Assembly (NCBI GenBank): GCA_963727765.1
Contig: CAVSGZ010000007.1
Span: 462,344-526,343, forward strand
Reading direction: 5' to 3'
Length of the DNA stretch: 64,000 nt
Source of the DNA: an uncultured Acidobacteriota bacterium
GTDB lineage: Bacteria; Acidobacteriota; Vicinamibacteria; Vicinamibacterales; Fen-181
Positions within the stretch are counted from its first letter, which is position 1. Each line of letters opens with the position of its first letter. The position numbers were made by a program, and so were the translations under genes. The notes beneath the pieces were generated by a model. That model was not told the DNA's origin, ran no database searches, and saw only the letters and a list, made by a program, of their open reading frames with translations. This document shows positions 15,285 to 36,270 of the stretch, piece by piece.

Positions 15285-15356
15285 CGGTTGAGTTCTCAGG
15301 GATGGTGGACCAGCAATCGGCTTCTGATCTCCGGCCGCTTCCCGCCAGGCGGCAAT

Positions 15357-16760
15357 CTAGTTCTCAGGCTCAGGCTTCTCGTCGCCTCCAGGATCAGGCT
15401 CGCCGTCCTTCTGCAGATGGTACTTGCGCATCTTGTTGTAAAGCGTCGCCCTGTCGATATCCAGCGTGCGGGCTGCGAGACTGATGTTCCCCTCCGAGCC
15501 CTGCAGGACCCTGGCGATGTGATGGCGCTCCACGCCCTCGAGCGACGCCAGCGCACTGCCGTTCTGGGCGTCGGCGCAGGGCGGACGCCGCAGACCCAGA
15601 TCGGCGGTTTGAATCACGGGTCCCGTGGTGACCACCATCGCCCGCTCGAGGCTGTTGGCCAGTTCGCGGACATTGCCCGGCCAGGTCTGGCTCATGAGCA
15701 ACCGCATGGCGTCACCTGACACGCCGTCCACGCGGCGGTTCGTCTCGGCCCCGAGCCTCTCCAGCAGATGCTCGACCAGCAGCGGCAAATCCGAGACCCG
15801 GTCGCGCAGCGGCGGCACATTGATCTGAATGATGTTTAGCCGATAGAACAGATCCCGGCGGAAGTTCCCCGCATCGACGTCCTTCTGCAGGGCGCGGTTG
15901 GTCGCGGCGATGATGCGCACGTCGACGTGGACGGATTCCGATCCGCCGACCCTGAAGAACTGCCGGTCCTCGAGCACGCGCAGCAAGTCGAGCTGGACCT
16001 TCGCGCTGATGTCGCCAATTTCGTCGAGGAACAGCGTGCCGCCGTCGGCCATCTCGAACTTGCCCTTGTGCCGCGCGGCCGCGCCGGTGAAAGCCCCCTT
16101 CTCGTGCCCGAAGAGCTCCGACTCGAGCAGCGTCTCGGTGAGCCCCGCGCAGGCGACGGCGACAAACGGCCCCTCGTTCCTCGGGCTCTCCGCGTGGATG
16201 GCGCGCGCGAGCAGCTCCTTGCCGGTCCCGCTCTCGCCGAGGATGAGGATGGTCGAGTTGCTGCGCGCGGCCGTGCGCGCGAGGTCGAAGACCGCCTGCA
16301 TCTCCGCGCTCTTGCTGATCAGGTCGCGGAAGTGATACTCGCGCTTGAGCACCTTGCGCAGCAGCACGTTCTCCCGGACGAGCGCCTGCTGGGTGACGAT
16401 CTTCTGGATCATCAGGCTCAGCTCTTCGGGGTCGAAGGGCTTGGTCAGGTAGTCGTAGGCGCCGATCTTCATGGCCGCCACGGCGCTGTCCACGGTGGCG
16501 TAGGCGGTCATGATCACGGTAGCGGCCTCAGGCTGCGTCTTCTTCGCCTCCTCGAGCACCTGCAGCCCGTCGATGCCGGGCATCTTCAGGTCCACGAGCA
16601 GGATCGACCATCGCTCCTTGTGGATGCGGTCGATGCCGGTCTCCCCGTCGGGCGCCGATGCGAGCGTGTAGCCGTCTTTCTCGAGCCACGCCGACAGCGA
16701 CTCACGCACGATCTCCTCATCGTCCACGATGAGGATGCGGGCTCGTTCTCTACTCATCAT
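15357..16760 (-). CDS. Sigma-54-dependent response regulator (NtrC family)
   Basis: Receiver domain (ILIVDDE..LLVDLKMPG), AAA+ GESGTGKELLARAIH, GAFTGA loop, C-terminal Fis-type HTH. Confidence 0.92.
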   Translation of the reverse strand: MMSRERARILIVDDEEIVRESLSAWLEKDGYTLASAPDGETGIDRIHKERWSILLVDLKMPGIDGLQVLEEAKKTQPEAATVIMTAYATVDSAVAAMKIGAYDYLTKPFDPEELSLMIQKIVTQQALVRENVLLRKVLKREYHFRDLISKSAEMQAVFDLARTAARSNSTILILGESGTGKELLARAIHAESPRNEGPFVAVACAGLTETLLESELFGHEKGAFTGAAARHKGKFEMADGGTLFLDEIGDISAKVQLDLLRVLEDRQFFRVGGSESVHVDVRIIAATNRALQKDVDAGNFRRDLFYRLNIIQINVPPLRDRVSDLPLLVEHLLERLGAETNRRVDGVSGDAMRLLMSQTWPGNVRELANSLERAMVVTTGPVIQTADLGLRRPPCADAQNGSALASLEGVERHHIARVLQGSEGNISLAARTLDIDRATLYNKMRKYHLQKDGEPDPGGDEKPEPEN

Positions 16761-18507
16761 GTTGGTGTCCTTGCTTGCGGATCTCCGCGTAGCGCGACTC
16801 GCAGTCGTGGCACAGCGCCGTGTCCTTCATATCCACCTGGGCCAGCGTCGCCGACCGCGCTATGACGCAGGTCGGCAACCGCACGATCACGGTCGTCCCT
16901 TCGCCCAACGCGCTCTCGATCTCGAGCGTCCCGCCGTGGCGCTCGATGATGCCGTAGACCACCGACAGGCCGAGGCCCGTTCCCTTCTCCTTGGTCGTGA
17001 AGAACGGGTCGAGGATGCGGGGCAGGAGCGCTGGCGCGATGCCCGGACCGGTATCGGTCATGCGCACCTCCACCTTCGAGCCGACATCCCGCGAGGTGAC
17101 GGTGAGCGATCCGCCCGTGGCCATCGCCTCGCACGCGTTGAGGGCGATGTTCACGAACGACTGGCGCAGCTGGCCGAAGTCGGCCTTCACGAGCGGCGTC
17201 GGCGGCAGGTCTTTCGCGAGCGTCACGTTCTGCATCTGCAGCCGGTGGGCGAGCAGGGACAAGGCCTCTTCGACGACCGCGCTGACGTCGAGCTCCTTCA
17301 GGCTCGGCGGGCGCTGCCGGGCAAAGTCGAGCAGGTTCCGGACGATCCCGCTGCAGCGCTCGGTTTCGCGCTGCACGAGCCGGAGGTTGCGCGTGCAGTT
17401 CTCGCGCATCTTCTCGTTGAGCTCGCCCTCCTCGTGCATGCGGATGAGGAGCTTGGCGTAGGTCAGGATGCCGGCCAGCGGGTTGTTGATCTCATGGGCC
17501 ACCGACGCGGCGAGCTTGCCGAGCGACGACATCTTCTCGGACTGGATGAGCTGCGCCTGTGCGCTCTTGAGGGCGTTGGTGCGCTCCTCGACCTGGCGCT
17601 CGAGGGTCTCGTTCAGCTGCCGGAGCTCGTCGTGCGCCTGTCCGAGCGACGTCGTCATCTGGTTGAACGAGGCGGCGAGCCGGCCGATCTCGTCGGTTTG
17701 CCGCATCCGGATCTGGTGGCCGAGATCGCCCTGGGCCACGCGTTCGGTGGCGGCGACAATCTCGCCGATCGGTCGGATGACGCGGCCCCTGAAGAACAGG
17801 CCCACGGCGACAGCCAGCAGCAGCACGCCGATCACCGAGAACACCGTCGTCTTGCGCCCGAGCGCGGCCACGGCGTGGTCCTCGTCCTCGAGAGACATCG
17901 CGATGTCCACCACGCCGAGCACGGGCCTGGCGGCCGGATGCACGTGACACGAGGCGGACGAACAGGTGGCCTCGTTGTAGATCGGCGTGATCATGGCGAG
18001 GACGCGGTGGTTGTTGCGCCTGAAGATGCGCGAGCGCGACGGCATATTGAGTCGCACGAGGGGCTGGCCGGCGGCGTGGCAGGCGTAGCAGGCCTCGGCG
18101 CGCTTGTCGACCAACCGGCCTTCCTCGGCCCGGTCGGTCGAGAAGGTGACGCGCCCCTCCTTGTTGAGCATCCGGACCTGCTCGATCCCGCGGAGCCGCC
18201 CAATCATGTCCATCGTGCGATAGGCGGCGGCCCGGTCGTTGCTCAACATGAAGTGGTAGGTGCTGGCCTTGATGGTGTCGCTGAACTGCGCCGCGCCGCG
18301 GAGCACCTCCGCGGTCAGATAGGCCTGCTGGGCGCGCAGGCTCGTCACGATGAGGACGGCGCCAGAGACCAGCGTCACGAGCGCGATGACGCCCGCCGCC
18401 TGGACGCCCAGGCGATTCCACCACCGGACCCGAAGCGTCGGGGTCGGCGGCAGGACCTGCGGCTCAGTTGGCGTCTGGGGAGGCATCACGGCACTCCAGG
18501 CCGGCAC
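16750..18507 (-). CDS. Sensor histidine kinase with two TM helices, a periplasmic loop carrying CXXCH, HAMP, HisKA and HATPase domains
   Basis: H-box SVAHEINNPLAGI, N/G boxes (NIALNACEA, TDTGPGI, GTGLGLS), HAMP after TM2. CYACH at 18076..18090 and CSSASCH at 17944..17964 lie in the predicted periplasmic loop. Confidence 0.9.
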   Translation of the reverse strand: MPAWSAVMPPQTPTEPQVLPPTPTLRVRWWNRLGVQAAGVIALVTLVSGAVLIVTSLRAQQAYLTAEVLRGAAQFSDTIKASTYHFMLSNDRAAAYRTMDMIGRLRGIEQVRMLNKEGRVTFSTDRAEEGRLVDKRAEACYACHAAGQPLVRLNMPSRSRIFRRNNHRVLAMITPIYNEATCSSASCHVHPAARPVLGVVDIAMSLEDEDHAVAALGRKTTVFSVIGVLLLAVAVGLFFRGRVIRPIGEIVAATERVAQGDLGHQIRMRQTDEIGRLAASFNQMTTSLGQAHDELRQLNETLERQVEERTNALKSAQAQLIQSEKMSSLGKLAASVAHEINNPLAGILTYAKLLIRMHEEGELNEKMRENCTRNLRLVQRETERCSGIVRNLLDFARQRPPSLKELDVSAVVEEALSLLAHRLQMQNVTLAKDLPPTPLVKADFGQLRQSFVNIALNACEAMATGGSLTVTSRDVGSKVEVRMTDTGPGIAPALLPRILDPFFTTKEKGTGLGLSVVYGIIERHGGTLEIESALGEGTTVIVRLPTCVIARSATLAQVDMKDTALCHDCESRYAEIRKQGHQHDE

Positions 18508-20391: not shown

Positions 20392-20757
20392 ATGGCAGCG
20401 AAGCAAATCGGCGGCACGGCAGCGAAGACCGGCTTCTACTGGAACCTGGGCAAGTGGAAAATCACCATGGTGCCCAGGCAGGGCGGCACCCTGCCCGGAG
20501 ACGCGAACCGGCGCTACGTGAAGATCCCCGTCCTGGCGCTGCTCGTCGTGGCCCCGCTTATGGGCGCCGTCTACGTGATTCTCCTGCCGTTTGTCGGCCT
20601 CCTCGGGCTGTTCAGGCTCTTCGGCAAGGAGGCGGCCGCGGCCGGTCCCGGAGCCTCGGACGCCGAAGACGGCGACGTTGTCGATCCGGTCTCGATTGAC
20701 GCCTCGGTCCAGGGCAAGCAGCGCACCGAGCCGCGGCGGCCGGACCTGCACGACTGA
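20392..20757 (+). CDS. Small membrane protein, hypothetical (121 aa)
   Basis: ATG 20392 preceded by GGAGAGG. One long hydrophobic segment (IPVLALLVVAPLMGAVYVILLPFVGLLGLF). Lies in the frame of track ORF 19600..20757. Confidence 0.55.
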   Translation: MAAKQIGGTAAKTGFYWNLGKWKITMVPRQGGTLPGDANRRYVKIPVLALLVVAPLMGAVYVILLPFVGLLGLFRLFGKEAAAAGPGASDAEDGDVVDPVSIDASVQGKQRTEPRRPDLHD

Positions 20758-20945
20758 GGGAACTCAGGCTGTAGCCTCCACTCTCTGGTTGCCGCGATCT
20801 GCGGCGACGATCCAGGTCCGCGCCGAGCCGCACAGGGGTGTGTCCTGGTGTTGCGTGCAAATGCTGTCGCGCCAACGACTTGCGCTGCGTCGGTGCGGAC
20901 CTGGCGCGCCGACCGGAGTCTCGACCATTTCGGTGTGCTTTCGAG

Positions 20946-20973
20946 TTGACATGTCGGGCGCATTCGACATAAT
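20946..20973 (+). promoter_or_regulatory. Candidate sigma70-type promoter (TTGACA-16 nt-CATAAT) upstream of the fused cytochrome gene
   Basis: TTGACA at 20946..20951 and CATAAT at 20968..20973, about 100 nt upstream of ATG 21074. A GGGAGG/CCTCCC hairpin lies in the leader. Confidence 0.5.
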
Positions 20974-21073
20974 CAGGCGAATATCGGGAGGTGGCCCCTC
21001 CCGCGCCCGACACCGGAAACCTGACCAGACCCCTGAGGGCGAGACGTCTTCAGAGACGGCTGTTGCTATAACT

Positions 21074-24000
21074 ATGGACATCAATCGACGACGATTCCTC
21101 CGATTCGGTCTCGCCGCTTCATCTGTGGCGACCTCGTCTTCCCTCCTCGCCAGCGAGTCGCCGAGTCCCGCGGCGGCGGCCATGCCCGACCACGTCGGCG
21201 TGCTCGTCGACACCACGCTGTGCATCGGCTGCCGTGAATGCGAGTCGGCCTGCAACCGCCGCAACAACCTGCCTCGTGTCACGACCTCTTTCTCCGATCG
21301 AGGCATCTTCAGGACGTTCCGCCGCCCATCGGAGACCGCCTTCACCGTCGTGAACCAGTTCCCTGGCAGCCCGTCGCACGACCAGGCCTCGCTTCAGGAG
21401 ACCTATTGCAAGGTGCAGTGCATGCACTGCCTGAACCCCTCCTGCGTCTCGGCCTGCATCGTCGGAGCGCTGACCAAGGCGCCAGATGGGGCAGTCGTCT
21501 ACAACCCGAGGATCTGCATCGGCTGTCGATACTGCCAGGTCGCGTGCCCGTTCGAGGTCCCGGCCTACGAGTTCAACGAACCGCTCGTACCGCGCGTCCG
21601 GAAGTGCGAGTTCTGCAGCGATCGGGTGAAGGGCACCGGTGCCAATCCCGCGTGCGCGGCCTCGTGCCCGACCGAGGCGCTGGTGTTCGGGCGCCGCGCC
21701 GATTTGGTGGCCATGGCCAAGGAGCGGCTCGCCCGCCGGCCCGACCGCTATGTCGACCACCTGTACGGGGAGCATGAGGTGGGGGGCACGTCGTGGATAT
21801 ACCTCACGGGGCGGCCCGTGCAGGAGGTCGGGCTGGTGAACCTGCCCGACACGCCGCCGCCGGAACGTACCGAGGCCATCCAGCACGGCATCTTCAAGTA
21901 CGGCATCATTCCGGTCGCCGTTTACGGCCTGTTGGCGGCCGTCATGTGGCACACACATCGGCAGCACCCGGAAGACCATCCGGGCATTGGTGAGGTCAGC
22001 AGCCCGGCTTCCGCCGCCAAGCCGGGACGAGGGTGGGCGATCATGACGCCGCTGCACAGCGACCGGCCGCATCGCGTCACAAAGCCGTTCTTCACGTTTG
22101 GCACCGTGACGTTGTGTCTCATCATGGGCGTCGGCTACGCCTTCGGCATCACGCGGATGCTGCTCGGCCTCGGCCGCGTGACCAACCTCGACAACCACAG
22201 TCCGTGGGGCATCTGGATCTCGTTCGACGTCGCGTGCGGCGTGGCACTGGCCGCCGGCGGTTTCACCACGGCGGCGCTCGTCGACATCTTCGGCCAGCGG
22301 CGGTTCAAGGCGCTGCTCCGTCCCGCCATCCTCACCGCCTTCCTCGGCTACCTCTGGGTGGCCATCGCCCTCAGTTTCGACCTCGGGAGGTACTGGAACA
22401 TCTGGCGCCCGATCTTCAACTGGCAGGGCAACTCGGTGCTGTTCGAAGTCGGGATGTGCGTCACCGTCTACCTCATGGTGCTGACGGTGGAGATGAGCCC
22501 GTCGATCCTGGAGGGCCTGAAGGCGCGGGTCGATCAGGACGAGTGGGGAGCCAGGCTGCTTCGGAAGATCGATCGGCCGCTGATGACGCTGTACGCGGCA
22601 GTCCGGATTGTCCTGCCGCTGTTCATCGTCGCCGGCGTGGTCCTGTCGTGCATGCACCAGTCGTCGCTCGGCACGCTGATGCTGATCGCGCCGACCAAGT
22701 CGAGCCCGCTGTGGGACACGGCCATGCTGCCCGTGCTGTTCCTGCTGTCGGCGACGATGGTCGGTTTCCCGATGGTGATTCTCGAGTCCATCTACGCGAA
22801 CATCAGCTTCGGCCGCAACCCGGAGATGGAGCTGCTGACGCCGATCGCGAAGATGATCCCCTGGTTCATCGGCGCCTACGGGGTCGTGAAGCTGGGCGAC
22901 CTGGCGTTCCGCTTCGGCAGCCTGGACTTCTTCGCGCACCCGGCGGCCACCACCTCGCTCGCGGTGGAGATCCTCCTCGGTGTCGTCGCGCCGTTCCTCC
23001 TGCTGCTCAACAAGGCGGTGCGCCGCTCGCAGGGGTGGCTGTTCCTCTCGGTGGCGCTCATCATTTTCGGCGTCGTACTGAACCGGATTAACGTGTTCCT
23101 GGTCGGCTATACGCCGCCCTACGCGACACACGCCTACTTCCCCTCGGTGGGCGAGATCGCGATGACGTTCGCGATCGTGTCGAGCATCCTGTTCTGCTAC
23201 CGCTTCTTCGTCACGTTCTTCCCCATCCTGCCCGGCTACCTGCCGGAGAGCGAGAACCAGCTCGAACGCATCCGCGAGGAGCGGGAGAAGACAGTGAGCC
23301 CGTTCTGGACGTGGGTGATTCGGGGGGCGGCCATCGCGTTTCTGATCGGGTTCGTCGGACTCTACAACGGCGTCCACGTGACCGCCATGCGGGGATCGAC
23401 CCGGCTCGTCGCGGATATCCGGCGGGTCCAGTCGGCCGCACCGGTCTTCGTCAAGGTCGAGGCCGTCGCCTACCCAAACCGCCCGGCGGCCTACCGGAAC
23501 TTCTTCGAGCTGAACAGCGAGGCGTTGAGGGCGAAATCGGACGACTACGAGCCGGTGGCCTTCTCGCACCGCATCCACGACGAGATCACGGGCGGGGACT
23601 GCGGCGCCTGCCACCATCGCTTTTCGTCCGACCCGAAGGACCGGGTCGGCGTGGACATCCGCGAACTCCACGGGCAGTTCGGAGTGAAGCTGGGCGGAGC
23701 CTGTTCCACCTGCCACCAGGACATGCAGACGAACGCGCCCCAGGGCTGCCCCCGCTGCCACGGCAACCCGTCGGAGGCTGATGCGCCGTCGCGGATTGGA
23801 CTCAAGGGTGCCTACCACCGGCAGTGCATCGGTTGTCATCAGAGCCAGCCCAAGACGGCGTCCGCGCCGACGGCCTGCAACGGCTGCCATCATCCATGGA
23901 CGCCCGACCACGGCAGGCTCGTGAACCTTCCGGCACATTCGAGTCCGCAGGACGTGACGCGCGCGTGCCTCTCCTGCCACGCGAAAGCCGGGCATGACAT

Positions 24001-25336
24001 GCTGAACACCGCCCATTGGACCTGGAAGGGGATGTCGCCGACGCTCAAGGGATACGAGCACCGCCTGGACGTCGGCCTCACCGTGCTGGCGAACGGCAGC
24101 TGCGCGGCGTTCGGCTCGTCCTCCGGTGAATGCGCGTCATGCCATGTCGGCTACGGTTGGGTCGACACGAAGTTCGACTTCACCAACCCGGACAACATCG
24201 ACTGCCTCGTGTGCCACGACACGACCGGAACCTACCGCAAAGAGCCGGGCCGTGCCGGCTTGCCGGACCCCTCGCTCGACCTCGAGGCCATCGCCCGGAA
24301 GGTCGGCCGTCCCTCGAAGCAGACGTGCGGATCGTGCCATGTCGCCAGTGGTAGTGACGGCATCCTGTACGCGAAGCGAGGCGACCTCGAGCCCGCGCTG
24401 GCAAGTCCGCCCGCCGAACTCGACGTGCACATGGGCGCGCTCAAGATGCGATGCCAGGACTGTCACCAGACCAACGAGCACCGCGTCGCGGGCACCTCGA
24501 CCGGCCAGCCGGCCGCAGAAGGCCCGGTGTCGTGCGAGAAGTGCCATGGCCAGACGCCGCATGGCGTGGCCGGCGTGCTCAGCCGGCACCTCGACGATCA
24601 CGTCAGGGCAGTGGCGTGCGAGACCTGCCACATCCCGTCGTTCGCGCGCACGTCACCGGCACTGCTCCGACGCGACTACTCGGCGGCCGGCGCCGATCGG
24701 CCCGCGACGGTCGGCCGCGACGGGATGCCGCAGTACGACAAGCGCTTCGGCACGCTCACCTGGGGCAAGGAGGTGGCGCCAATCTACCTCTGGTACGACG
24801 GCACACGGACTCCCTCGGTCGCCGGTGACGCCATCGACCCGTCGAAACCGGTTGTCCTCAACCCACCGGTGGGCGAGAAGCGAAACCCGGCCGCGCGGAT
24901 CTTCCCGTTCCAGGTGCAGGCGGCCGTGCAACCCTACGACTCCATCAACAAGGTCCTGGCATTGCCGAAACTGCTCGATGGGTACTGGGTCAATTTCGAC
25001 TGGTCGAAGTCGATCGCCAGCGGGATGCAGGAGGCGAACGTCCCCTATTCCGGGAAATACGGCTTCGTCGAAACCAGGATGTACGTCCCGATCTACCATG
25101 AGGTCGTCGCCGCCAAGAAGGCGTTGGGCTGCGCCGACTGCCATGCCGCCGACGCCATCACCTGCACCCGGTGTCACAAGGACGCGGCAGGGATGAACCT
25201 CCCCGAACATCGGCGCGCGGTCTATCCGGCCGTGTCGCGGCGGATTGACTTCAAATCGCTTGGGTACCCTGACGATCCCGCTCGGACCGGTGGGCGGTTC
25301 TACGTCGGGCTCGGCCGCGGCGTGCCGCCGCGGTAA
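21074..25336 (+). CDS. Fusion protein: Tat-signal 4x[4Fe-4S] ferredoxin (NrfC/HybA-like) + NrfD/HybB-like polytopic membrane domain + multihaem cytochrome c with 14 CXXCH
   Basis: No in-frame stop from 20591 to 25336. ATG 21074 gives MDINRRRFLRFGL (twin-Arg). Four Cys clusters, then about 12 hydrophobic helices, then 14 CXXCH motifs (CGACH, CSTCH, CPRCH, CIGCH, CNGCH, CLSCH, CASCH, CLVCH, CGSCH, CQDCH, CEKCH, CETCH, CADCH, CTRCH). Confidence 0.85.
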   Translation: MDINRRRFLRFGLAASSVATSSSLLASESPSPAAAAMPDHVGVLVDTTLCIGCRECESACNRRNNLPRVTTSFSDRGIFRTFRRPSETAFTVVNQFPGSPSHDQASLQETYCKVQCMHCLNPSCVSACIVGALTKAPDGAVVYNPRICIGCRYCQVACPFEVPAYEFNEPLVPRVRKCEFCSDRVKGTGANPACAASCPTEALVFGRRADLVAMAKERLARRPDRYVDHLYGEHEVGGTSWIYLTGRPVQEVGLVNLPDTPPPERTEAIQHGIFKYGIIPVAVYGLLAAVMWHTHRQHPEDHPGIGEVSSPASAAKPGRGWAIMTPLHSDRPHRVTKPFFTFGTVTLCLIMGVGYAFGITRMLLGLGRVTNLDNHSPWGIWISFDVACGVALAAGGFTTAALVDIFGQRRFKALLRPAILTAFLGYLWVAIALSFDLGRYWNIWRPIFNWQGNSVLFEVGMCVTVYLMVLTVEMSPSILEGLKARVDQDEWGARLLRKIDRPLMTLYAAVRIVLPLFIVAGVVLSCMHQSSLGTLMLIAPTKSSPLWDTAMLPVLFLLSATMVGFPMVILESIYANISFGRNPEMELLTPIAKMIPWFIGAYGVVKLGDLAFRFGSLDFFAHPAATTSLAVEILLGVVAPFLLLLNKAVRRSQGWLFLSVALIIFGVVLNRINVFLVGYTPPYATHAYFPSVGEIAMTFAIVSSILFCYRFFVTFFPILPGYLPESENQLERIREEREKTVSPFWTWVIRGAAIAFLIGFVGLYNGVHVTAMRGSTRLVADIRRVQSAAPVFVKVEAVAYPNRPAAYRNFFELNSEALRAKSDDYEPVAFSHRIHDEITGGDCGACHHRFSSDPKDRVGVDIRELHGQFGVKLGGACSTCHQDMQTNAPQGCPRCHGNPSEADAPSRIGLKGAYHRQCIGCHQSQPKTASAPTACNGCHHPWTPDHGRLVNLPAHSSPQDVTRACLSCHAKAGHDMLNTAHWTWKGMSPTLKGYEHRLDVGLTVLANGSCAAFGSSSGECASCHVGYGWVDTKFDFTNPDNIDCLVCHDTTGTYRKEPGRAGLPDPSLDLEAIARKVGRPSKQTCGSCHVASGSDGILYAKRGDLEPALASPPAELDVHMGALKMRCQDCHQTNEHRVAGTSTGQPAAEGPVSCEKCHGQTPHGVAGVLSRHLDDHVRAVACETCHIPSFARTSPALLRRDYSAAGADRPATVGRDGMPQYDKRFGTLTWGKEVAPIYLWYDGTRTPSVAGDAIDPSKPVVLNPPVGEKRNPAARIFPFQVQAAVQPYDSINKVLALPKLLDGYWVNFDWSKSIASGMQEANVPYSGKYGFVETRMYVPIYHEVVAAKKALGCADCHAADAITCTRCHKDAAGMNLPEHRRAVYPAVSRRIDFKSLGYPDDPARTGGRFYVGLGRGVPPR

Positions 25337-25349
25337 GGAGTGAATCGAC

Positions 25350-25378
25350 CACGGCCCGCGCGGCAGCGCCGGGCCGTG
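25350..25378. terminator. GC-rich hairpin between convergent cytochrome genes (candidate bidirectional terminator)
   Basis: CACGGCCCG(CGC)..(GCG)CCGGGCCGTG inverted repeat between stop 25336 (+) and stop 25405 (-). No clear U-tract. Confidence 0.5.
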
Positions 25379-25404
25379 TCGCTTCGTGACCGCTGAACGT
25401 CGGG

Positions 25405-27432
25405 CTACTCGTCGCGAGCGGCTTCGGCTCCGGCGGCGCCCGTCGCCTTCACGTCGTGGCCCGGCCCGTCCGGCGTCGCGTGGGTCCGGTGTGCCGGCCT
25501 CGTGCCGGTAATCCACGACGGGTTCATCGGGTACTCACCCGGATCGAACACCACCCAGTAGAAATGCCACACGAGGATGGCGAGCGTGGCGAGCACCGCC
25601 TCGTAGTAGTGGATCACCTGCGCCACGTCGTGCCACACCTTGGGCAGCAGGCGCAGGACGGTCTCGGTGAACACCAGCATGATGCCGGTCACGGCCATGA
25701 TCACCGAGCCCCACACCAGTGCCCAGTATTCCGCCTTCTCGGCGTAGTTCCACCGGCGGGCCGGGGGCTGGCCGGCACCGATTCCCAGGTTGTACATCAC
25801 TTGGGCCCACGCGTCCTTCGCGTCGGCCCATGCGAACCACAGCGCACGGCCTTGACTGCGGCCGGACCGCGTACCCAAGAGGGCGCCGAGGTGCACGACG
25901 AAGAAGACCACGAACGCCCATCCGAAGACGCGGTGGAGCAGCGCACGCAGCGCGTTCCCGTCGGGCAGGACCGTGAACGGCCAGCTGAAGAACGCCTCCG
26001 GGAACTTGTGGACGAACCCGGTGTAGGCCAGGCCGACGAACAGCACCATAAGCACCGTGTGCTGATGGCGAAGCCACGGTGTCAGGCGCACCTCCGCGTT
26101 GGGGTCGGCCTTCACGGCGCGCACATGGTCTCTGGACTTGCGGTAGTAGTCGAGTGCGACGAACAGCGCCATTCCGCCAATCGTCACCACGATGACGACG
26201 ATGTAGACGATGGTGACGAGGTTGACGACCCACGGCTTGTCGGCGTGCGGGCCGGACGGCGCGTGGACCCTGAAGAACTCGGCGCTCATTCGGTTGCCGA
26301 TGCCGGGATGGCACTTGCCGCAGGTCTGGGGCAACTGTGCCGGGTTGACCTTCGATTCCGGATCCGATGACGGCAGAATGTCGTGGACGCCGTGGCAGGA
26401 CGAGCAGTTGGCGACTGTGACGTTGCCGCCCTGCAGCGCCAGGCCGTGGAAGCTCTGGGTGTAGGTGCTCATGACGTCGGGCGGCAGGCCGTACTGCGTC
26501 GCGATCCGCTGCGCCGCATGGCACTGGGCGCACGTCCCGGGCACGTTCGCGGCGGACACCCGCGACGAAGCGAGCTTCACCGCCGCGATGCTGTGCTCGC
26601 CGTGGCAGTCAGTGCAGACGGGCGCGTCGCGCACGCCCTGCGCCACCGCTTTGCCGTGGATGCTCATGGCGTAGGTGCGCTGGATGTTCTCGTGGCATTT
26701 CCCGCAGGTCGAGGGCACGGTGCGCCAGTAGAGCTTGGAGTTGGGGTTGGTCGACTTGTGGAGGTCGTGCGACCCGTGGCAGTCAGTGCAGACGGCGGAG
26801 TTCATTACCTTCTTCTGGATGACGGCGATGCCGTGGACGCTCGTCTCGTAGCTGACAATCGGGTTCTCCTGGCTCAGGTTGAACCGCCGCATCTCCGCCG
26901 TATTGCCGTGGCAGCGTCCGCAGGTGGTCGCGAGATTGGCCCGGTTGACCGGGGACTGCGGATCCCGCGAGTTCAGCAGGATGTGGGACGCTCCGTGACA
27001 GTCCTTGCATGAGGCGGCCTCGGTGACGCCCTTGTGGACCGCCTGGCCGTGGTCGCTCTTCAGGTAGATTTCCGTCTCAATGCGATGGCAGTTCGAGCAG
27101 GCCACCGGCTTGGGCACGAACTTGTCGGGGTGCGGCACTTCCCGGATGTCCGTATGGCAGCTCGTGCAGCGGTTCTTGCCGTGGATCGACGCCTGATACT
27201 GCTGGAGGTCCACGAAGATCGATTTCGGCTTGCCGTCCGGTCCCGTCGTGGCGAAGTCCTTGTCACCATGACACGCCAGGCAGTCGGTGTTCGCGATGGC
27301 CGCCGGCGCCCTGGCGGCTGTTTGGGCTTTCAGGCTGGCAGCGCCGGCCAGCAGCACGAGCGCCACGAGAAAGAGGACTTCTAAGAACTCATGACTGCGA
27401 GCCGATCTGGTCGAGCCAGTGGGAGTGGGCAT
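25405..27432 (-). CDS. Multihaem cytochrome c (11 CXXCH) fused to a C-terminal dihaem cytochrome b-type (FdnI/HydC-like) membrane domain; CbcL-like
   Basis: Signal peptide, 11 CXXCH (CLACH..CGKCH), then 5 hydrophobic helices with conserved His (HQHTVLMV, LLHRVFGW..VVHLG, WHDVAQVIHYYE..VWHFYW). Confidence 0.85.
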   Translation of the reverse strand: MPTPTGSTRSARSHEFLEVLFLVALVLLAGAASLKAQTAARAPAAIANTDCLACHGDKDFATTGPDGKPKSIFVDLQQYQASIHGKNRCTSCHTDIREVPHPDKFVPKPVACSNCHRIETEIYLKSDHGQAVHKGVTEAASCKDCHGASHILLNSRDPQSPVNRANLATTCGRCHGNTAEMRRFNLSQENPIVSYETSVHGIAVIQKKVMNSAVCTDCHGSHDLHKSTNPNSKLYWRTVPSTCGKCHENIQRTYAMSIHGKAVAQGVRDAPVCTDCHGEHSIAAVKLASSRVSAANVPGTCAQCHAAQRIATQYGLPPDVMSTYTQSFHGLALQGGNVTVANCSSCHGVHDILPSSDPESKVNPAQLPQTCGKCHPGIGNRMSAEFFRVHAPSGPHADKPWVVNLVTIVYIVVIVVTIGGMALFVALDYYRKSRDHVRAVKADPNAEVRLTPWLRHQHTVLMVLFVGLAYTGFVHKFPEAFFSWPFTVLPDGNALRALLHRVFGWAFVVFFVVHLGALLGTRSGRSQGRALWFAWADAKDAWAQVMYNLGIGAGQPPARRWNYAEKAEYWALVWGSVIMAVTGIMLVFTETVLRLLPKVWHDVAQVIHYYEAVLATLAILVWHFYWVVFDPGEYPMNPSWITGTRPAHRTHATPDGPGHDVKATGAAGAEAARDE

Positions 27433-27623
27433 GGGTGGTTGTCCGTAGCGATCTCGCTGGAGTGCGGCGGCTTCAGGCCGCCCTGCTCAAGAACCGAGAC
27501 ATCATAACCCAAGGTCTGACAGACGCGGCATGCCACGACTCATCCATCCGGGGCGAAAGGCGGCGACGGCCCCTCATCCTCCGGGTGGTCGGCTGACGGC
27601 TCGGCGTCAGCGGACCTGACCCG

Positions 27624-28010
27624 CTACCGGTCTGGCCCAATCGAGAGCACATAGGCGGTCAACTGGAGTACGGCGTCCTCTCCGAGGGAGCGCCAACCAG
27701 GCATCGGCGTTCCGGGCAAGCCGTCGCGCACCGCCCGGTACACCCGCTGGGGGGAGGTCGACTGACGCCACGCCTGGTTGGTGAAGTCGCGCGGCGGCGT
27801 CGAAAACGCCGAAGCCCGCATCCCCTGGCCGTCGCCCCGCGCGCCGTGGCAAATCTCGCAATAGCGCTGATACAGCGCGCGGCCTGCGCGAGCGGCCTCT
27901 GGGGCAGCGACGCGCGAGTCGAAGTCGGGCGGCAGGTCAGTGGGACGACGACACGACAGGCCTGTCGCCGCCAGCCACGCCGCCGCCACGACCGGAAGCA
28001 GTCGGGGCAT
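27624..28010 (-). CDS. Monohaem class I cytochrome c
   Basis: CEICHGARGDGQG haem motif and distal PMPGW Met. N-terminal hydrophobic signal MPRLLPVVAAAWLAA. Start is 28010 or 28067, and either overlaps the end of the protease gene. Confidence 0.75.
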   Translation of the reverse strand: MPRLLPVVAAAWLAATGLSCRRPTDLPPDFDSRVAAPEAARAGRALYQRYCEICHGARGDGQGMRASAFSTPPRDFTNQAWRQSTSPQRVYRAVRDGLPGTPMPGWRSLGEDAVLQLTAYVLSIGPDR

Positions 28011-28503
28011 CGCCAGCCTTCTTCTCGAGCGGGTAGCCGAGGCGGGCGGCTTCCTCGCAGACGACATCGACGAGCTGCGTGAAGGTGGCCTGCACCCGGG
28101 GTGACAGCCCGATCCCCAGTTCCGTCGTCTCGGGCACGCTGCCGAGCAAGACCAGAGTGGGAGGCACCCGGCCGCGCCATCGTGCGGCCTCGATCAAGTC
28201 TGACACGCCCACCTGGTGGACCGAGAGGCGGCCCGCGACGGCCGGGCCGACCTCCTCGCCCTCGAGGCGCACGAGCGTGCCCGGCGGCCCGTCGGCGTCG
28301 ATGGCATCGACGAGGATCGCGCACTCGGCGTCTTCGAGGTAGGGCAGAAGCTGGAGGCCCAGGGTGCCGCCGTCGAGAACCTGCACGCCGTCGGGCAGCG
28401 TGCGGGTCTCGGCAATCCGCTGGGCCACCATGGCTCCGAGCCCATCGTCGGTGCACAGCAGGTTGCCGAGGCCCAGGATCAGCAGGCGCGAACGACTATC
28501 CAC
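27937..28503 (-). CDS. [NiFe] hydrogenase maturation endopeptidase (HyaD/HybD family)
   Basis: LILGLGNLLCTDDGLGAMV..ILVDAID..HQVG motifs, directly downstream of the cytochrome b subunit. Confidence 0.88.
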   Translation of the reverse strand: MDSRSRLLILGLGNLLCTDDGLGAMVAQRIAETRTLPDGVQVLDGGTLGLQLLPYLEDAECAILVDAIDADGPPGTLVRLEGEEVGPAVAGRLSVHQVGVSDLIEAARWRGRVPPTLVLLGSVPETTELGIGLSPRVQATFTQLVDVVCEEAARLGYPLEKKAGDAPTASGRGGGVAGGDRPVVSSSH

Positions 28504-29224
28504 GCGTGTCCTTGCGGTCGATGAACCGATAGCCCGAATACACGAGGTCCTCGCGCGGCACGAACTTGTAGCCCGAGAAGATCGACTCCACCGTCGCGTT
28601 GGCCTCGACCTGTGACATCAGGACCGCGCTGTAGACGTGGTGAACGGCAAATCCGATCAGCATCCACATGAACCCGTGGTGGAGCCAGCGGGCCGTCGAG
28701 ACGCCGCCGAACCACGGCACCAGGAAGGTGAACCACCGGAGCGGCGAGCCGACGTGGGCGCTCACCGAGTACATCGCGAGCCCGGTGCCGAGCATGATCA
28801 GGTAGACCACGAACACGACCGTGTAGGCGAGGCCCGCCAGCGGGTTGTGGCCGACGAACCCGGGCGGCTTCCGAAATCGGAACAGGTAGTAGCCGAGCGT
28901 CGGCCCGAGGGCCTTCCAGCGTTTCTTGCGCGCCGGCACGAACTTGTCCCACCTCGCATAGTTGTTGCCGGCGAACATCCACCAGATCCGGCTGATGACG
29001 GCGATGCCGAAGACGATCGCCGTCGAGTAATGAATCAGCTTGGCGAGCCCCATCAGCGACCGCTGGGACGCCAGGCCGGTCGTGATCGGCCCCGGGTTTG
29101 CGATGTAGAGGCCGGTGACCGCCAGCACGGCGATCGAGCCGGCGATGAACCAGTGGCACACGCGCACGGGCCACTCCCAGACGTAGACCCGGACGGTCTC
29201 GGCGAGGGGTTGGTCCTGGATCAT
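28496..29224 (-). CDS. Ni/Fe-hydrogenase b-type cytochrome subunit
   Basis: VYVWEWPVRVCHWFIA.. with four TM helices and conserved His. Overlaps the large-subunit stop. Confidence 0.9.
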   Translation of the reverse strand: MIQDQPLAETVRVYVWEWPVRVCHWFIAGSIAVLAVTGLYIANPGPITTGLASQRSLMGLAKLIHYSTAIVFGIAVISRIWWMFAGNNYARWDKFVPARKKRWKALGPTLGYYLFRFRKPPGFVGHNPLAGLAYTVVFVVYLIMLGTGLAMYSVSAHVGSPLRWFTFLVPWFGGVSTARWLHHGFMWMLIGFAVHHVYSAVLMSQVEANATVESIFSGYKFVPREDLVYSGYRFIDRKDTRG

Positions 29225-30927
29225 GGGAGCCTCACTCGCGCGACTTCCTGCTTGCGCGCGTCAAGGACGTGGACGCCACAGGCCAGACAGGGATCGAACG
29301 AGTGGATCGTGCGCAGGATCTCGACCGGCTTGGTCGGATCGGCGACCGGCGTGCCGAGCAGGGCTTCCTCGTACGGCCCGCGCTGGCTGCTGGCATCGCG
29401 CGGCCCGGCGTTCCACGTGCTGGGCACGATGCACTGGTAATTGGCGATGGCGCCGTTGCGGATGTGGACCCAGTGGCCCAGCGCCCCGCGCGGCGCTTCG
29501 TGAAACCCGGCCCCCGACGCGTCCGCCGGCCAGCTCGACGGATCCCACTTGGCGTTGTCGTGCGTCCGCAGGTCGTGCCGCGCCATGTTGGCGGCAAGCT
29601 GGTCGAGCCATTCCCCCTGCTTCTCGGCGAGCACGAGCGTCTCGATGGCGCGCGCCGCCACGCGACCGAGCGTCGAGAAGAGCGCCTCCGGCCCGACATT
29701 CAGCTTCTGCAGCACCACGCCGACCAGTTCCTTCACGCGCGGGTGCCCGGACGCGTAGGCGACGAGCATCCGCGAGAGGGGACCGACTTCCATCGGCAGC
29801 CCGGCGTAGCGGGGCGACTTGAGCCAGCTGTACTTCGCGGCCGTATCGAGCCGCTCGTAGGGAGGCTTCGGGCCGGTGTACTTGGGTTTGGTTTCTCCCT
29901 GGAACGGGTGAAGCCCCTGCTGATCGCCGCCGTCGTACTCGTACCACGAGTGGCTGACCATTTCGGTGATCTGCCCCGTGTCGAGCTTCTCGACCTTGGT
30001 CAGATCCCGTCCCCGTATCACGCCGGAGGGGAAGAACAGCGGCGGGTTCGGCCCCTCGTCCTCCGGGTACTCGCCGTAGACGAGGTAGTTGCCCACGCCG
30101 GCTCCGTACGCGGCCCAGTCCTTGTAGAACGAGGCGACGGCGAGGACGTCGGGGATGTAGACGCGGGCCACGAAGTCGTGGGCCTTGGCGATGAGCGACC
30201 GCACCGAGGCCAGCGTGTCGGCGTTGAGCGAGGCCTGCTTGTCCAGATCCACAGGCGTCGCCATGCCGCCGACGAGGAAGCTCTGGAGGTGAGGGTTCTT
30301 GCCGCCGAGGATCGCGTGGACCTTGATCACCTCGCGCTGCCACTCGAGCGCCTCGAGGTAGTGCGCGACCGCCATGAGGTTGGCTTCCGGCGGCAGCTTG
30401 TAGGCGGGGTGGCCCCAGTAGGCGTTGGCGAACGGCCCGAGCTGGCCGCGTTCGACAAACGCCTTCAGCCGGTCACGCACTCCAGCGAAGTAGGTGGCGC
30501 TCGACAGCGGCCAGTCCGAGATCGATTCGGCGAGCGACGACGTCTTGACCGGGTCGGCGCTCAGGGCGGAGACGACGTCGACCCAGTCGAGCGCGTGCAG
30601 GTGGTAGAAGTGGATCACGTGGTCCTGCACTGCCTGCATCGCGATGATCAGGTTCCGAAGCAGGCGCGCATTGGGCGGCGGCACGGCGCCGATGGCGTTC
30701 TCGACGGCCCGGATCGACGCGATCGCATGCACCGTCGTGCACACGCCGCAGATTCGCTGGGTGAAGACCCAGGCGTCGCGGGGGTCGCGGCCCTGCAGGA
30801 TCATCTCGATGCCGCGGAACATGGTGGAGGAGGACCAGGCGTCGCGCACCGTGCCGCCGTCGACTTCAGCCTCGATCCTGAGGTGCCCTTCGATCCGGGT
30901 GACCGGATCAACGACGATGTGCGTCAT
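29221..30927 (-). CDS. [NiFe] hydrogenase large subunit (group 1, membrane-bound uptake type)
   Basis: RIEGHLRIE, N-terminal RICGVCTTVH and C-terminal DPCLACGVH Ni-binding motifs followed by a cleavable tail. Confidence 0.95.
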   Translation of the reverse strand: MTHIVVDPVTRIEGHLRIEAEVDGGTVRDAWSSSTMFRGIEMILQGRDPRDAWVFTQRICGVCTTVHAIASIRAVENAIGAVPPPNARLLRNLIIAMQAVQDHVIHFYHLHALDWVDVVSALSADPVKTSSLAESISDWPLSSATYFAGVRDRLKAFVERGQLGPFANAYWGHPAYKLPPEANLMAVAHYLEALEWQREVIKVHAILGGKNPHLQSFLVGGMATPVDLDKQASLNADTLASVRSLIAKAHDFVARVYIPDVLAVASFYKDWAAYGAGVGNYLVYGEYPEDEGPNPPLFFPSGVIRGRDLTKVEKLDTGQITEMVSHSWYEYDGGDQQGLHPFQGETKPKYTGPKPPYERLDTAAKYSWLKSPRYAGLPMEVGPLSRMLVAYASGHPRVKELVGVVLQKLNVGPEALFSTLGRVAARAIETLVLAEKQGEWLDQLAANMARHDLRTHDNAKWDPSSWPADASGAGFHEAPRGALGHWVHIRNGAIANYQCIVPSTWNAGPRDASSQRGPYEEALLGTPVADPTKPVEILRTIHSFDPCLACGVHVLDARKQEVARVRLP

Positions 30928-32054
30928 ACGGTGTCCCCCTTCTTCGAGTCAGTCGTCTGGGGCTGCGCCGGCTCGGGTTCGGGCTTCTGGCGCGAGCGCT
31001 TGATGTAGGAGATCAGCCCGTGGGTGGCGAACGCCGCGGCGATGCCGGCCGTGGCCGCCACGCCGACGCGGTCCACGGTGTAGCCGGGCCCCAGGAAGGG
31101 CGGTCCCGGCAGGTGGTTGTAGAACGGCGTCATCTTGTCCCAGAAGTCCGGTTCGGCACAGCCCACGCATGGGTGGCCGCAGCCGATCGGCCAGTTGGTG
31201 CCCTCGTTCCAGCGGACGCGCGGGCAGTTCTGGAAGGTCACCGGCCCCTTGCAGCCCATCTTGTAGAGGCAGTACCCGGTGCGGTGCCCCTCGTCTCCCC
31301 AGGCCTCGACGTACTGGCCGGCGTCATAGTGCGCGCGCCGTTCGCAGTTGTCGTGGATCAGCTTGCCGTAGGCGAACAGCGGCCGCCCGAACTCGTCGAG
31401 CGGCGGCCAGTACTTGAAGGTGAGATAGTGCACGAGCAGCGCCGTGATGTTCTCGGCGTTGGCCGGGCAGGCCGGCAGGTTCACCAGGTTCTTGATTCCC
31501 GGCACCGCGTCGCGCACGCTCAGCGCGCCGGTCGGGTTGGGCGACGCCGCCGGCAGGCCGCCGTACGCCGCGCACGTGCCCATGGCGATGGTCGCCGCGG
31601 CTCCGCCGCACACCTCGCGCGCGATGTCGATCGCCGCGCGGCCGCCGATCGTGCAGTAGGCCCCGTTCTCAAACGTCGGGATCGAGCCCTCCACGACGAC
31701 GAAGTACTGCCCCTTCTTGTCGCCCACGACCTTGTGCAGCGCTTCCTCGGCTTGCGTGCCGGCCGCCGCCATGATCGTCTCGTGATAGTCCACCGAGAAC
31801 ACGTCGAGGACGATGTCCGCGACCGTTGGGCGCGCCGCCCGGAGGAACGACTCGGTGTTGCCGCAGCAGTCCTGGAACTCGAGCCAGACCAGCACCGGCT
31901 TCTCGGCCCCCTGGATGGCCTTGGCGATCTTCGCCGACACCGACGCCGGCAAGGCGAGTGTCGAGGCCATGACGGTGCAGAACCCCAGGAAATCGCGGCG
32001 GGACACCCCTCGCCGCTCCAGTTCCTCGATGAACCAGTTCTCGCGCTCGCTCAT
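30924..32054 (-). CDS. [NiFe] hydrogenase small subunit with Tat signal and C-terminal membrane anchor
   Basis: RRDFLGFC twin-Arg signal, FeS Cys ligands (WLEFQDCCGNTES, CPANAEN, CGHPCVGC), C-terminal hydrophobic helix. Confidence 0.95.
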   Translation of the reverse strand: MSERENWFIEELERRGVSRRDFLGFCTVMASTLALPASVSAKIAKAIQGAEKPVLVWLEFQDCCGNTESFLRAARPTVADIVLDVFSVDYHETIMAAAGTQAEEALHKVVGDKKGQYFVVVEGSIPTFENGAYCTIGGRAAIDIAREVCGGAAATIAMGTCAAYGGLPAASPNPTGALSVRDAVPGIKNLVNLPACPANAENITALLVHYLTFKYWPPLDEFGRPLFAYGKLIHDNCERRAHYDAGQYVEAWGDEGHRTGYCLYKMGCKGPVTFQNCPRVRWNEGTNWPIGCGHPCVGCAEPDFWDKMTPFYNHLPGPPFLGPGYTVDRVGVAATAGIAAAFATHGLISYIKRSRQKPEPEPAQPQTTDSKKGDTV

Positions 32055-32209
32055 AGGTCACGTCCTTTGACGGCAGTCGTTCGACCAGGCGAACGCTGCG
32101 CGCTTCAAGCAGGTTGGCGACCGGCCGGACGGGTCATCCGGCTCGAACGAAAGGGCCCGCGACGGGCGCCGAACGCTACCGGCGATGTGGTTGGGAGACC
32201 TGGGGCGGG

Positions 32210-32238
32210 ATTATAGCAAGAGTGCCCGCTCGCGCAAG
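32210..32238 (-). promoter_or_regulatory. Candidate sigma70-type promoter for the hydrogenase operon (TTGCGC-16 nt-TATAAT on the minus strand)
   Basis: A perfect TATAAT is the reverse complement of 32210..32215, with TTGCGC 16 nt upstream. It lies about 155 nt upstream of the small-subunit ATG. Confidence 0.45.
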
Positions 32239-36261: not shown

Positions 36262-36270
36262 ACTCGCCCT

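Follow-up and report, generated by a model that had tools for sequence, protein, structure and literature searches.

A 64,000-nucleotide stretch of DNA from an uncultured Acidobacteriota bacterium of the order Vicinamibacterales (contig CAVSGZ010000007.1, positions 462,344 to 526,343; hereafter ‘the window’) carries an operon for a [NiFe]-hydrogenase next to genes for c-type cytochromes, and this cluster is the subject of the present analysis. Genes were called by third-position G+C content (GC3; the window is ~68% G+C) and cross-checked with Pfam and NCBIfam. The minus strand encodes the small and large hydrogenase subunits, a cytochrome b, a maturation protease, a monohaem cytochrome c and a CbcL-like multihaem protein. 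Converging on the CbcL-like gene, the plus strand encodes a small open reading frame (ORF) with one transmembrane (TM) helix, a HybA-like iron-sulphur (FeS) protein and an NrfD-type membrane protein that continues into a 14-haem cytochrome (Table 1). An earlier reading, made from the letters of the window without database searches (the sequence-only reading), had described a hydrogenase clustered with three c-type cytochrome genes carrying 26 CXXCH motifs, and every gene it named was found where it had been placed. These motifs are distributed as 14, 11 and 1 among the three cytochrome genes. The remaining 44 ORFs of the window, which together encode ~16,000 amino acids, hold a single CXXCH, located in a sensor kinase, and therefore the enrichment within the cluster is far beyond chance.

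Table 1. Features of the hydrogenase-cytochrome cluster and of the neighbouring regulators, with coordinates in the window.
Feature	Coordinates	Strand	Basis
NtrC-type sigma54-dependent response regulator, partner of the kinase	15357..16760	-	Pfam Response_reg, Sigma54_activat, HTH_8
Histidine kinase with periplasmic sensor, HAMP, HisKA and HATPase domains	16750..18507	-	Pfam
Small ORF, 120 amino acids, one TM helix	20395..20757	+	TM pattern; no Pfam or NCBIfam family match
Sigma70-like promoter match, TTGACA-16-CATAAT (11/12)	20946..20973	+	Consensus scan; ~100 bp upstream of the HybA-like start
HybA/HmcB-like periplasmic 4x[4Fe-4S] protein, Tat signal, C-terminal TM anchor	21074..22045	+	NF008134, Fer4_11
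Junction, HybA-like tail with extra nucleotide	21990..22045	+	Three-frame translation, DNA alignment
HybB/HmcC-like NrfD protein with 14-haem cytochrome	22043..25336	+	PF03916, PF11783; TIGR04315
CbcL/MtrH/MtoC-type protein, 675 amino acids	25405..27432	-	11 CXXCH; PF01292 at residues 450-629; c7/c3/paired-CXXCH families
Monohaem class-I cytochrome c, 147 amino acids	27624..28067	-	CEICH; PF13442, PF00034
HyaD/HybD-type maturation endopeptidase	27937..28503	-	PF01750, TIGR00072
HyaC-type cytochrome b	28496..29224	-	PF01292, 102 bits; TIGR02125, 146.2 bits (cut-off 121.5)
[NiFe]-hydrogenase large subunit, group 1 membrane-bound uptake type	29221..30927	-	PF00374, 787 bits
[NiFe]-hydrogenase small subunit	30924..32054	-	PF14720, PF01058; TIGR00391, 432 bits

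The hydrogenase operon has the features expected for an enzyme that is exported, anchored and connected to the membrane. The small subunit carries the Tat motif RRDFL (RRDFLGF, residues 19-25) and a hydrophobic C-terminal TM anchor (residues 330-348), and the large subunit has both the N- and the C-terminal cysteine pairs of the NiFe site (RICGVC and DPCLACGVH). Hydropathy indicates four hydrophobic helices in the cytochrome b. Because this HyaC-type cytochrome b scores above its curated cut-off and the small subunit is predicted to be Tat-exported and membrane-anchored, the hydrogenase is classified from its sequence as a quinone-linked, membrane-bound respiratory uptake enzyme. This agrees with the earlier proposal that the enzyme has its own cytochrome b for quinone reduction; given this b-type cytochrome and the membrane anchor on the small subunit, it is not of a type unlinked to quinone, the outcome that had been named beforehand as evidence against the proposed route. 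The fifth gene of the operon, whose start overlaps the end of the protease gene, encodes the monohaem cytochrome c, in which a PMPGW motif lies downstream of CEICH and would supply the methionine ligand.

Among solved structures, the large subunit is nearest to 3myr (Allochromatium vinosum HynL, 756 bits), followed by 4c3o (Salmonella Hyd-5, 671 bits). The window operon shares with A. vinosum HynSL, Salmonella Hyd-5 and the operons of Geobacter/Geomonas type the gene order small subunit, large subunit, cytochrome b and protease, as well as the Tat signal and membrane anchor on the small subunit. It differs from them in the additional monohaem cytochrome c gene and in the proximal-cluster motif of the small subunit, and it lacks the isp genes of the A. 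vinosum type. The motif reads C-C-G-N (FQDCCGNTES, residues 59-68, window positions 31860-31890) and, by motif comparison only, does not contain the C-T-C-C of O2-tolerant group 1d enzymes.

To place these features in context, one genome per species was scanned for related hydrogenases, and 80 loci with 65-91% identity in the large subunit (L005-L084) were kept, onto which all proteins of the window cluster were mapped. The hosts are Acidobacteriota, Myxococcota and Geobacter-type genomes, with the Geobacter/Geomonas-type operons at 66-69% identity. In nearly all of these loci the small subunit carries C-x-G-N/D in place of the usual C-x-G-C, such that one canonical cysteine ligand of the proximal cluster, the second, is replaced by asparagine or aspartate across the clade. 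The four core hydrogenase genes were found in most of the loci. The monohaem cytochrome c gene directly follows the protease gene in 35 of the 42 loci with at least 73% large-subunit identity (Acidobacteriota, Thermoanaerobaculia, Myxococcota and some Burkholderiales), and in only one of the 35 loci below that value (Geobacter, Nitrospirota and similar). No other cytochrome c gene shows a stable linkage with the hydrogenase. Orthologues of the window CbcL-like or NrfD-14-haem genes lie beside the hydrogenase in none of the 80 loci.

Although these particular orthologues are missing, several loci have other multihaem genes directly beside the operon, with an ORF carrying at least three CXXCH motifs in the hydrogenase flanks of 13 of the 80 loci. 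In L005-7, whose large subunits are 90-91% identical to that of the window and whose flanks are of the window type, the neighbours are a 9-haem cytochrome and a separate FdnI-like cytochrome b, a pair that amounts to a split CbcL-like protein ~29% identical to the window protein. L014 has, upstream of the hydrogenase, genes for HybA, NrfD fused to a 3-haem domain, a kinase and a sigma54 regulator, and hyp genes downstream. In L018 and L022, both from Vicinamibacteria, an ImcH-like NapC/NirT-type cytochrome gene immediately precedes the small-subunit gene. The Desulfobacterota metagenome-assembled genome (MAG) at L051 contains, co-directionally in positions 2665-15381, genes for a DUF3373 protein, an octahaem tetrathionate reductase (OTR) and a CbcL-like 9-haem protein, followed by the hydrogenase operon; here, independently of the window, an OTR, a CbcL-type protein and a hydrogenase are encoded together. 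This OTR is typical in that it keeps the G-K...C signature (lysine and cysteine), and a hybrid-cluster protein gene lies downstream of the operon. True hyb-type operons occur separately in L016, L017 and L067. The ImcH-like genes (L018, 2582-3964; L022, 2677-4050; L050, 3890-5395) encode proteins of ~460-500 amino acids with a NapC/NirT N-terminal region and 5-6 CXXCH motifs; the one in L050, another Desulfobacterota MAG, lies 3.5 kb upstream of the hydrogenase small-subunit gene.

Judged from these gene contexts, quinone-interacting multihaem modules appear to have become neighbours of this hydrogenase clade at least five times independently and through four non-homologous solutions. Chance adjacency of gene types present in a few copies should occur at well below 1% per genome, by a rough estimate made without correction for phylogeny, and such modules adjoin the clade too often for the association to be indifferent. 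That at least five lineages carry non-orthologous quinone modules next to hydrogenases of this one clade therefore favours a loose coupling through the quinone pool.

The CbcL-like gene is separated from the monohaem cytochrome c gene by a gap of 191 bp. Its product begins with a signal or anchor helix, followed by 11 CXXCH motifs at residues 51-375 in a part predicted to be periplasmic, one TM helix and a four-helix b-type domain resembling FdnI and HydC (PF01292, 47.6 bits against a cut-off of 30.1; the match to TIGR01583 is weak). Geobacter sulfurreducens CbcL and the CbcL/MtrH/MtoC family have the same arrangement of an N-terminal periplasmic multihaem c-type part and a C-terminal HydC/FdnI-like b-type domain; the likeness is one of architecture, with 11 haem motifs in the window protein against 9 in G. 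sulfurreducens CbcL. Homologues of CbcL/MtrH/MtoC are known from 15 phyla with 3-23 haem motifs (PMC6295460). A search returned ~8,000 candidates at E<1e-10, with 60-75% identity across Acidobacteriota, Binatia, Verrucomicrobiae and Brocadiia. The window protein thus belongs to a kind already known and to a widespread family. Within this family, a full-length, ~30% identical paralogue often stands in tandem ahead of the CbcL-like gene, as in nine loci (L094, L095, L125, L127, L137, L138, L141, L153 and L161). Three records of Brocadiia type (P0162, P0165 and P0167) are family proteins of ~1009 amino acids joined to Lrp-type regulator domains, which may be gene-call fusions.

On the opposite strand, one unbroken frame extends from 21074 to 25336 and encodes a Tat signal with a HybA-like 4Fe-4S protein, an NrfD domain and 14 CXXCH motifs. 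A still longer ORF starting at 20591 (1581 amino acids) was rejected because the Tat signal and all homologues begin at 21074. The sequence-only reading had treated the frame as a single 14-haem fusion protein. In a search of a protein collection, at least 243 homologues of the NrfD-14-haem protein were found, all of ~1095 amino acids and spanning the NrfD and haem parts only, in Acidobacteriota (with one MAG labelled Vicinamibacterales), Binatia, Methylomirabilota and Thermoanaerobaculia. Eleven related loci (L001-L004, L167-L170 and a JGI contig, together with L014 and L142, in which the cytochrome parts are shorter than that of the window) have a separate HybA-like gene of ~325 amino acids immediately upstream, overlapping the NrfD gene by 4 nucleotides (ATGA) in most cases and by 14 in L002. 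These include the closest relative with called genes, in which the two genes overlap by 4 nucleotides. The fusion of NrfD to the multihaem cytochrome is therefore conserved, but the HybA part is a separate gene in every relative examined.

The cause of the difference lies in the HybA-like tail, which is poorly conserved and differs in length among relatives. The distance from GGTGAG to the internal ATG is 54 nucleotides in the window and 53 in L001, and the ancestral HybA stop (the TGA of ATGA, 22043-22046) is out of frame in the window. One extra nucleotide in this tail therefore causes the HybA-like gene to read into the NrfD gene. The extra base, which the family as a whole does not share, reflects either a strain-specific change or an error in sequencing or assembly. 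Because a GAGGG motif lies ahead of the internal NrfD ATG, independent translation of the NrfD gene is still possible. A triple fusion of HybA, NrfD and cytochrome was thus rejected as a conserved protein, given two genes in every relative and a single-nucleotide difference within a variable tail.

The HybA-like protein passes the HybA model (NF008134, 277 bits against a cut-off of 263) and falls below that for HmcB (318 against 420). The membrane protein contains an NrfD domain (PF03916, 62.5 bits against 25.8), and it remains below the cut-offs for HybB (NF008133, 309 against 450) and HmcC (272 against 550). The haem part scores 71.5 bits as HmcA, for which the cut-off is 400. In sum, all scores for the Hmc complex of sulfate reducers lie below the cut-offs with the HmcDEF-like genes absent nearby, and the NrfD-14-haem gene lies outside any hyb operon and does not have the characteristics of an Escherichia coli-type HybB. 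Hydropathy analysis reveals ~10 TM helices and then an eleventh just before the haem domain, and HybB-type subunits are predicted to have 10 (PMC8076601). The eleventh helix would place the 14 haems in the periplasm.

The general design is nonetheless that of E. coli hydrogenase-2 HybA/HybB and of Desulfovibrio HmcB/HmcC or NhcB/NhcC, in which a Tat-exported, anchored 4x[4Fe-4S] protein is paired with a 10-TM NrfD-type subunit. As in the window, the HybB/HmcC/NhcC-type subunit that holds the quinone site carries no cofactors. What differs is the partner, which is a multihaem cytochrome fused to NrfD in the window, in contrast to a hydrogenase for HybA/HybB or the separate HmcA or NhcA. The module logic of E. 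coli NrfABCD is also shared, with NrfD as the quinol site, an NrfC-like FeS protein, electron-transfer haems and a terminal haem domain, whereas the haem subunits of the window are fused to NrfD and the terminal domain is of OTR type without the lysine ligand. A role as quinol:acceptor reductases has been suggested for complexes of FeS, NrfD and multihaem subunits in Melioribacter and MBNT15 (PMC9386147). Apart from such general complexes, we found in the literature no description of an NrfD-OTR fusion or of a hydrogenase-cytochrome cluster from Vicinamibacteria. The earlier statement that two additional quinol-interacting multihaem modules adjoin the hydrogenase is borne out by one module of CbcL type and one composed of HybA, NrfD and a multihaem cytochrome.

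The haem part of the NrfD-fused protein consists of two sections. Haems one to six are similar to the C-terminal regions of the 16-haem HmcA and of the nine-haem cytochromes (HMC structures, E ~1e-16). The last eight form a domain that matches Shewanella OTR over its full length (1sp3, E=1.4e-97; TIGR04315, 442.8 bits against a cut-off of 375), such that the C-terminal ~400 residues align end to end with the Shewanella oneidensis enzyme (1SP3) and share its eight haem motifs and active-site cysteine. The window domain differs from OTR in being fused, behind six haems, to an NrfD membrane protein rather than forming a soluble enzyme, and in one ligand. According to the legend of Supplementary Figure 14 in a preprint (bioRxiv 10.1101/2023.04.20.537704), three features make up the catalytic signature of OTR, namely the second haem-binding motif, a lysine that serves as a ligand and a cysteine. 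By both HMMER and MAFFT, this lysine (position 56 of 1sp3 by our alignment count) aligns with leucine (VGLTV) in the window. Close homologues have G/S-L-T at this site, and the lysine is kept only in a few distant ones (P0076, P0101 and P0103). The second haem CXXCH has been lost in 28 of 120 homologues (among P0088-P0120), all at most 61% identical to the window protein and left with 13 haems. The family thus appears, from these alignments, to tolerate loss of the OTR active site.

Because the lysine ligand is replaced by leucine and the second haem is lost in 28 of the 120 homologues, an electron wire seems the more likely role for the octahaem domain than an oxyanion reductase. A precedent is MmcA of Methanosarcina, which the same preprint (bioRxiv 10.1101/2023.04.20.537704) describes as an OTR-related heptahaem electron conduit of the Rnf complex. 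Both proteins are OTR-derived, have lost features of the catalytic site and are attached to a membrane redox complex, which is Rnf for MmcA and NrfD/HybA for the window protein. MmcA has lost the second haem motif, the lysine and the cysteine, whereas the window protein has lost the lysine only, and it is the 13-haem relatives that resemble MmcA.

Examination of the cytochrome genes in their other contexts reveals which parts of the cluster travel together. The identical arrangement, including the epimerase, kinase and sigma54 regulator genes that flank it, was found only in two close relatives, L085 (CbcL-like protein 94% and NrfD-cytochrome 96% identical) and the JGI contig (CbcL-like protein 90% identical). 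A lack of conserved co-localisation, named beforehand as an outcome that would refute the proposed route, is therefore what these genes show beyond ~90% identity, and at 64-82% identity both cytochrome modules lie in loci without a hydrogenase. Among 46 CbcL-centred metagenome loci of at least 8 kb, HybA-like and NrfD genes lie beside the CbcL-like gene in 16 and a sigma54 regulator in 17. For example, L106 (Verrucomicrobiae) has genes for a CbcL-like protein, a separate multihaem cytochrome of 330 amino acids, an FeS protein, NrfD, a kinase and a regulator, surrounded by ResB/CcsB cytochrome biogenesis genes and further multihaem genes. In L169 (Thermoanaerobaculia), a paralogue with CbcL architecture (full-length, 33% identical) is co-directional with HybA and NrfD-14-haem genes, and the set lies behind ImcH-like, Rieske, cytochrome b and multihaem genes. 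To judge from these contexts, the recurrent unit comprises a CbcL-type protein, a HybA/NrfD/multihaem module and a two-component regulator, with the hydrogenase not being part of it. On a short contig with a 96% identical CbcL-like protein (L134, 1-2601), the small TM ORF lies between the monohaem and CbcL-like genes, a gene order different from that of the window, which suggests that the slot is prone to rearrangement.

The kinase and response regulator (15357-18507), which lie outside the coordinates given by the sequence-only reading, belong to this comparison. The sensor domain of the kinase holds one CXXCH (CYACH) and one CX4CH (CSSASCH) motif, and the protein is probably a haem-c sensor by its sequence. 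The same sensor domain with both motifs is found beside the HybA/NrfD modules of L014 and L142, and these were the sole matches in a search with the domain, so the kinases beside CbcL-like genes in other phyla have other sensor domains. For the same reason, we rejected the idea that those kinases represent the same regulator. The kinase-regulator pair is retained in the close relative of the window. From such contexts, the haem-sensor kinase and the sigma54 regulator probably control the cytochrome modules or belong to them.

These observations can be assembled into a model in which three autonomous respiratory units, adjacent here within a rearrangement-prone slot, would be coupled only through a shared quinone pool. 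We give this model an even chance of being correct. It is built on observed gene identities, domain order, topology pattern and comparative contexts, and from these we infer the direction of electron flow, the acceptors, any co-regulation and the link between H2 and the cytochromes. In the first unit, the Tat-exported, anchored uptake hydrogenase would pass electrons from H2 through its FeS small subunit and the HyaC-type cytochrome b to menaquinone; this unit also encodes the clade-conserved monohaem cytochrome c. In the second, the b-haem membrane domain of the CbcL-type protein would exchange electrons with the quinone pool, with its 11 c-haems leading into the periplasm. The third would be a two-gene HybA-like/NrfD-like quinone module with a cytochrome fused to the C-terminus of NrfD behind the extra TM helix, whose six HmcA-like haems and OTR-derived octahaem domain most likely serve as an electron wire. 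The second and third units, with the haem-sensor kinase and the sigma54 regulator, would represent the set that recurs in several phyla without the hydrogenase. The likely flow would then be from H2 to menaquinol, on to the multihaem quinol oxidases and finally to periplasmic or extracellular acceptors. The sequence-only reading had gone further and proposed a dedicated route from H2 through quinone to multihaem proteins. Similar modules beside the hydrogenase clade (L005-7, L014, L018/L022 and L051) speak for such a route, but the word ‘dedicated’ is an overstatement, and neighbouring modules sharing a quinone pool are what the data allow.

Several observations weigh against the model of three quinone-coupled units. 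The cluster consists of units that differ in strand or are separated by intergenic gaps, and consensus scans revealed no promoter shared among them. A search for sigma54 promoters (TGGCAC-N5-TTGCW with up to two mismatches) gave 12 matches where 21 are expected by chance, none of them upstream of cluster genes, and thus nothing indicates that the cluster is under control of the sigma54 regulator nearby. No porin-cytochrome conduit, that is, an outer-membrane beta-barrel with multihaem partners, was present among the window ORFs scanned. Pairs of HybA and NrfD-14-haem genes occur in unrelated contexts without a hydrogenase in L001, L002, L004, L167, L168 and L170 (54-82% identical) and also in L169, the CbcL-like gene of L086 (73% identical) has no hydrogenase beside it, and none of the 46 CbcL-centred loci contains one. 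With regard to the wire, the window protein keeps both the second haem motif (CASCH, aligned with CTSCH of 1sp3) and the active-site cysteine (NGSC, aligned with NNFC at position 64 of 1sp3), and a catalytic site with histidine or another ligand is possible in the window clade. Finally, by analogy with its relatives, electron flow through the NrfD module could be reversed.

The simplest alternative is that the modules are neighbours by accident, functionally independent and brought together by a hot spot of gene turnover that separates the hydrogenase operon from the epimerase gene. The same flanks in L005-7 (the HlyD-ABC-ABC-hydrogenase genes at one end, the small TM ORF and the epimerase gene at the other) enclose different genes, namely those for the 9-haem cytochrome, the cytochrome b, an M56 peptidase, a kinase and a LuxR-type regulator, and L134 shows yet another gene order. 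The cytochrome genes stand alone in L001, L002, L004, L086, L167, L168 and L170 (no hydrogenase is seen in L003, where the contig ends at the gene), and in the window the modules are convergent, with a promoter-like site of their own. However, at least five independent lineages have refilled the slot with genes of a single functional class, those for quinone-interacting multihaem proteins of the inner membrane, which is hard to achieve by chance for genes with only a few copies in each genome, and we consider an accidental neighbourhood to be somewhat unlikely. The sequence-only reading had also allowed for reduction of nitrogen or sulphur oxyanions by the octahaem domain. By analogy with NrfABCD, the domain would act as a tetrathionate, nitrite or hydroxylamine reductase fed by menaquinol via NrfD and HybA, with the hydrogenase as the preferred donor. 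Consistent with this, the domain exceeds the curated cut-off of the OTR family and retains the second haem motif and nearby cysteine, the layout parallels NrfD, NrfC, NrfB and NrfA, and in L051 a typical OTR and a CbcL-like gene lie directly upstream of a similar hydrogenase operon that is followed by the hybrid-cluster protein gene. The leucine at the position of the active-site lysine in the window and nearly all close homologues nevertheless weakens the proposal, as do the 28 of 120 family members that lack the second haem motif while keeping the rest of the protein, and MmcA, which according to the preprint cited above shares these losses and works as a conduit. Oxyanion respiration driven by H2 is thus improbable.

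Relatives of Hmc, Nhc and Qrc type act as quinone reductases, and in Desulfovibrio such complexes receive electrons from periplasmic hydrogenases via cytochrome c3. The NrfD-14-haem module might likewise be a quinone reductase fed by periplasmic donors, possibly including H2 by way of the hydrogenase and the monohaem cytochrome c. Outside the hydrogenase families, its FeS subunit matches HmcB best and its membrane subunit HmcC, its hexahaem part is similar to the HmcA C-terminus and to the nine-haem cytochrome, and the hydrogenase operon has a conserved gene for the monohaem cytochrome c, all of which would suit such a direction of flow. Against it stand the hydrogenase’s own cytochrome b for quinone reduction, the subthreshold Hmc scores with no HmcDEF genes, and the fact that the monohaem gene is conserved in 35 loci without an NrfD module. 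We regard this reverse arrangement as very improbable. A bolder version of the quinone-coupled model would hold that this clade of hydrogenases from soil and sediment (Acidobacteriota, Myxococcota and relatives) has repeatedly recruited CbcL-, ImcH- and NrfD-fused modules in addition to its own monohaem cytochrome c, giving rise in uncultured Vicinamibacteria to an undescribed H2-driven route towards periplasmic or extracellular acceptors in which the OTR-derived 14-haem, NrfD-fused wire replaces soluble cytochromes. Such a route is an unlikely, speculative extension.

Other features of the window are less closely connected to the cluster. Membership of the small TM ORF in the system is doubtful; its homologue adjoins the epimerase gene in L005-7, where the NrfD module is absent. 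That epimerase gene encodes an NAD-dependent epimerase/dehydratase (18782-20368) with a C-terminal extension of ~200 amino acids that has no family match, and the extended gene keeps its place beside the small TM ORF both in L005-7 and in the close relative. Among the window ORFs with coding-type GC3, none was identified as a hyp, ccm or porin-cytochrome gene, in line with their absence as noted by the sequence-only reading. A terminator scan returned fewer sites than in shuffled sequences and nothing at the convergent junction (25336-25405). Three successive minus-strand ORFs of 353, 268 and 201 amino acids (35266-37634) have coding-type GC3 and no Pfam match; they sit between HlyD/ABC genes and an M14 peptidase gene, and the equivalent position in L085 has ORFs of similar size (339 and 341 amino acids). 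Positions 51100-59650 hold a small integrated element or prophage remnant, with genes for a phage capsid family protein (51988-52689), a D5-type primase (55527-56423) and a tyrosine integrase (58358-59635).

The points that are new here are the two-gene structure of the apparent fusion, the probably non-catalytic OTR-derived domain, the conserved monohaem gene and the recurrent set of CbcL-type, HybA/NrfD and regulator genes. Members of the NrfD-14-haem family (at least 243 clusters) are automatically annotated as ‘hydrogenase cytochrome b subunit’ or ‘octaheme tetrathionate reductase’, both of which are misleading, and corrected names matter when hydrogen, sulphur and nitrogen cycling are deduced from metagenomes. 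Through loss of the lysine ligand and, in a subclade, of the catalytic haem, this family would join MmcA as the second case in nature of an OTR enzyme that has become a wire. Little is known about the anaerobic energy metabolism of Vicinamibacteria and related Acidobacteriota, which are abundant in soil and for the most part uncultured. If these organisms indeed couple H2 oxidation to multihaem quinol oxidases, then they would have a part in the H2-driven reduction of metals, humics and other periplasmic acceptors in soil.

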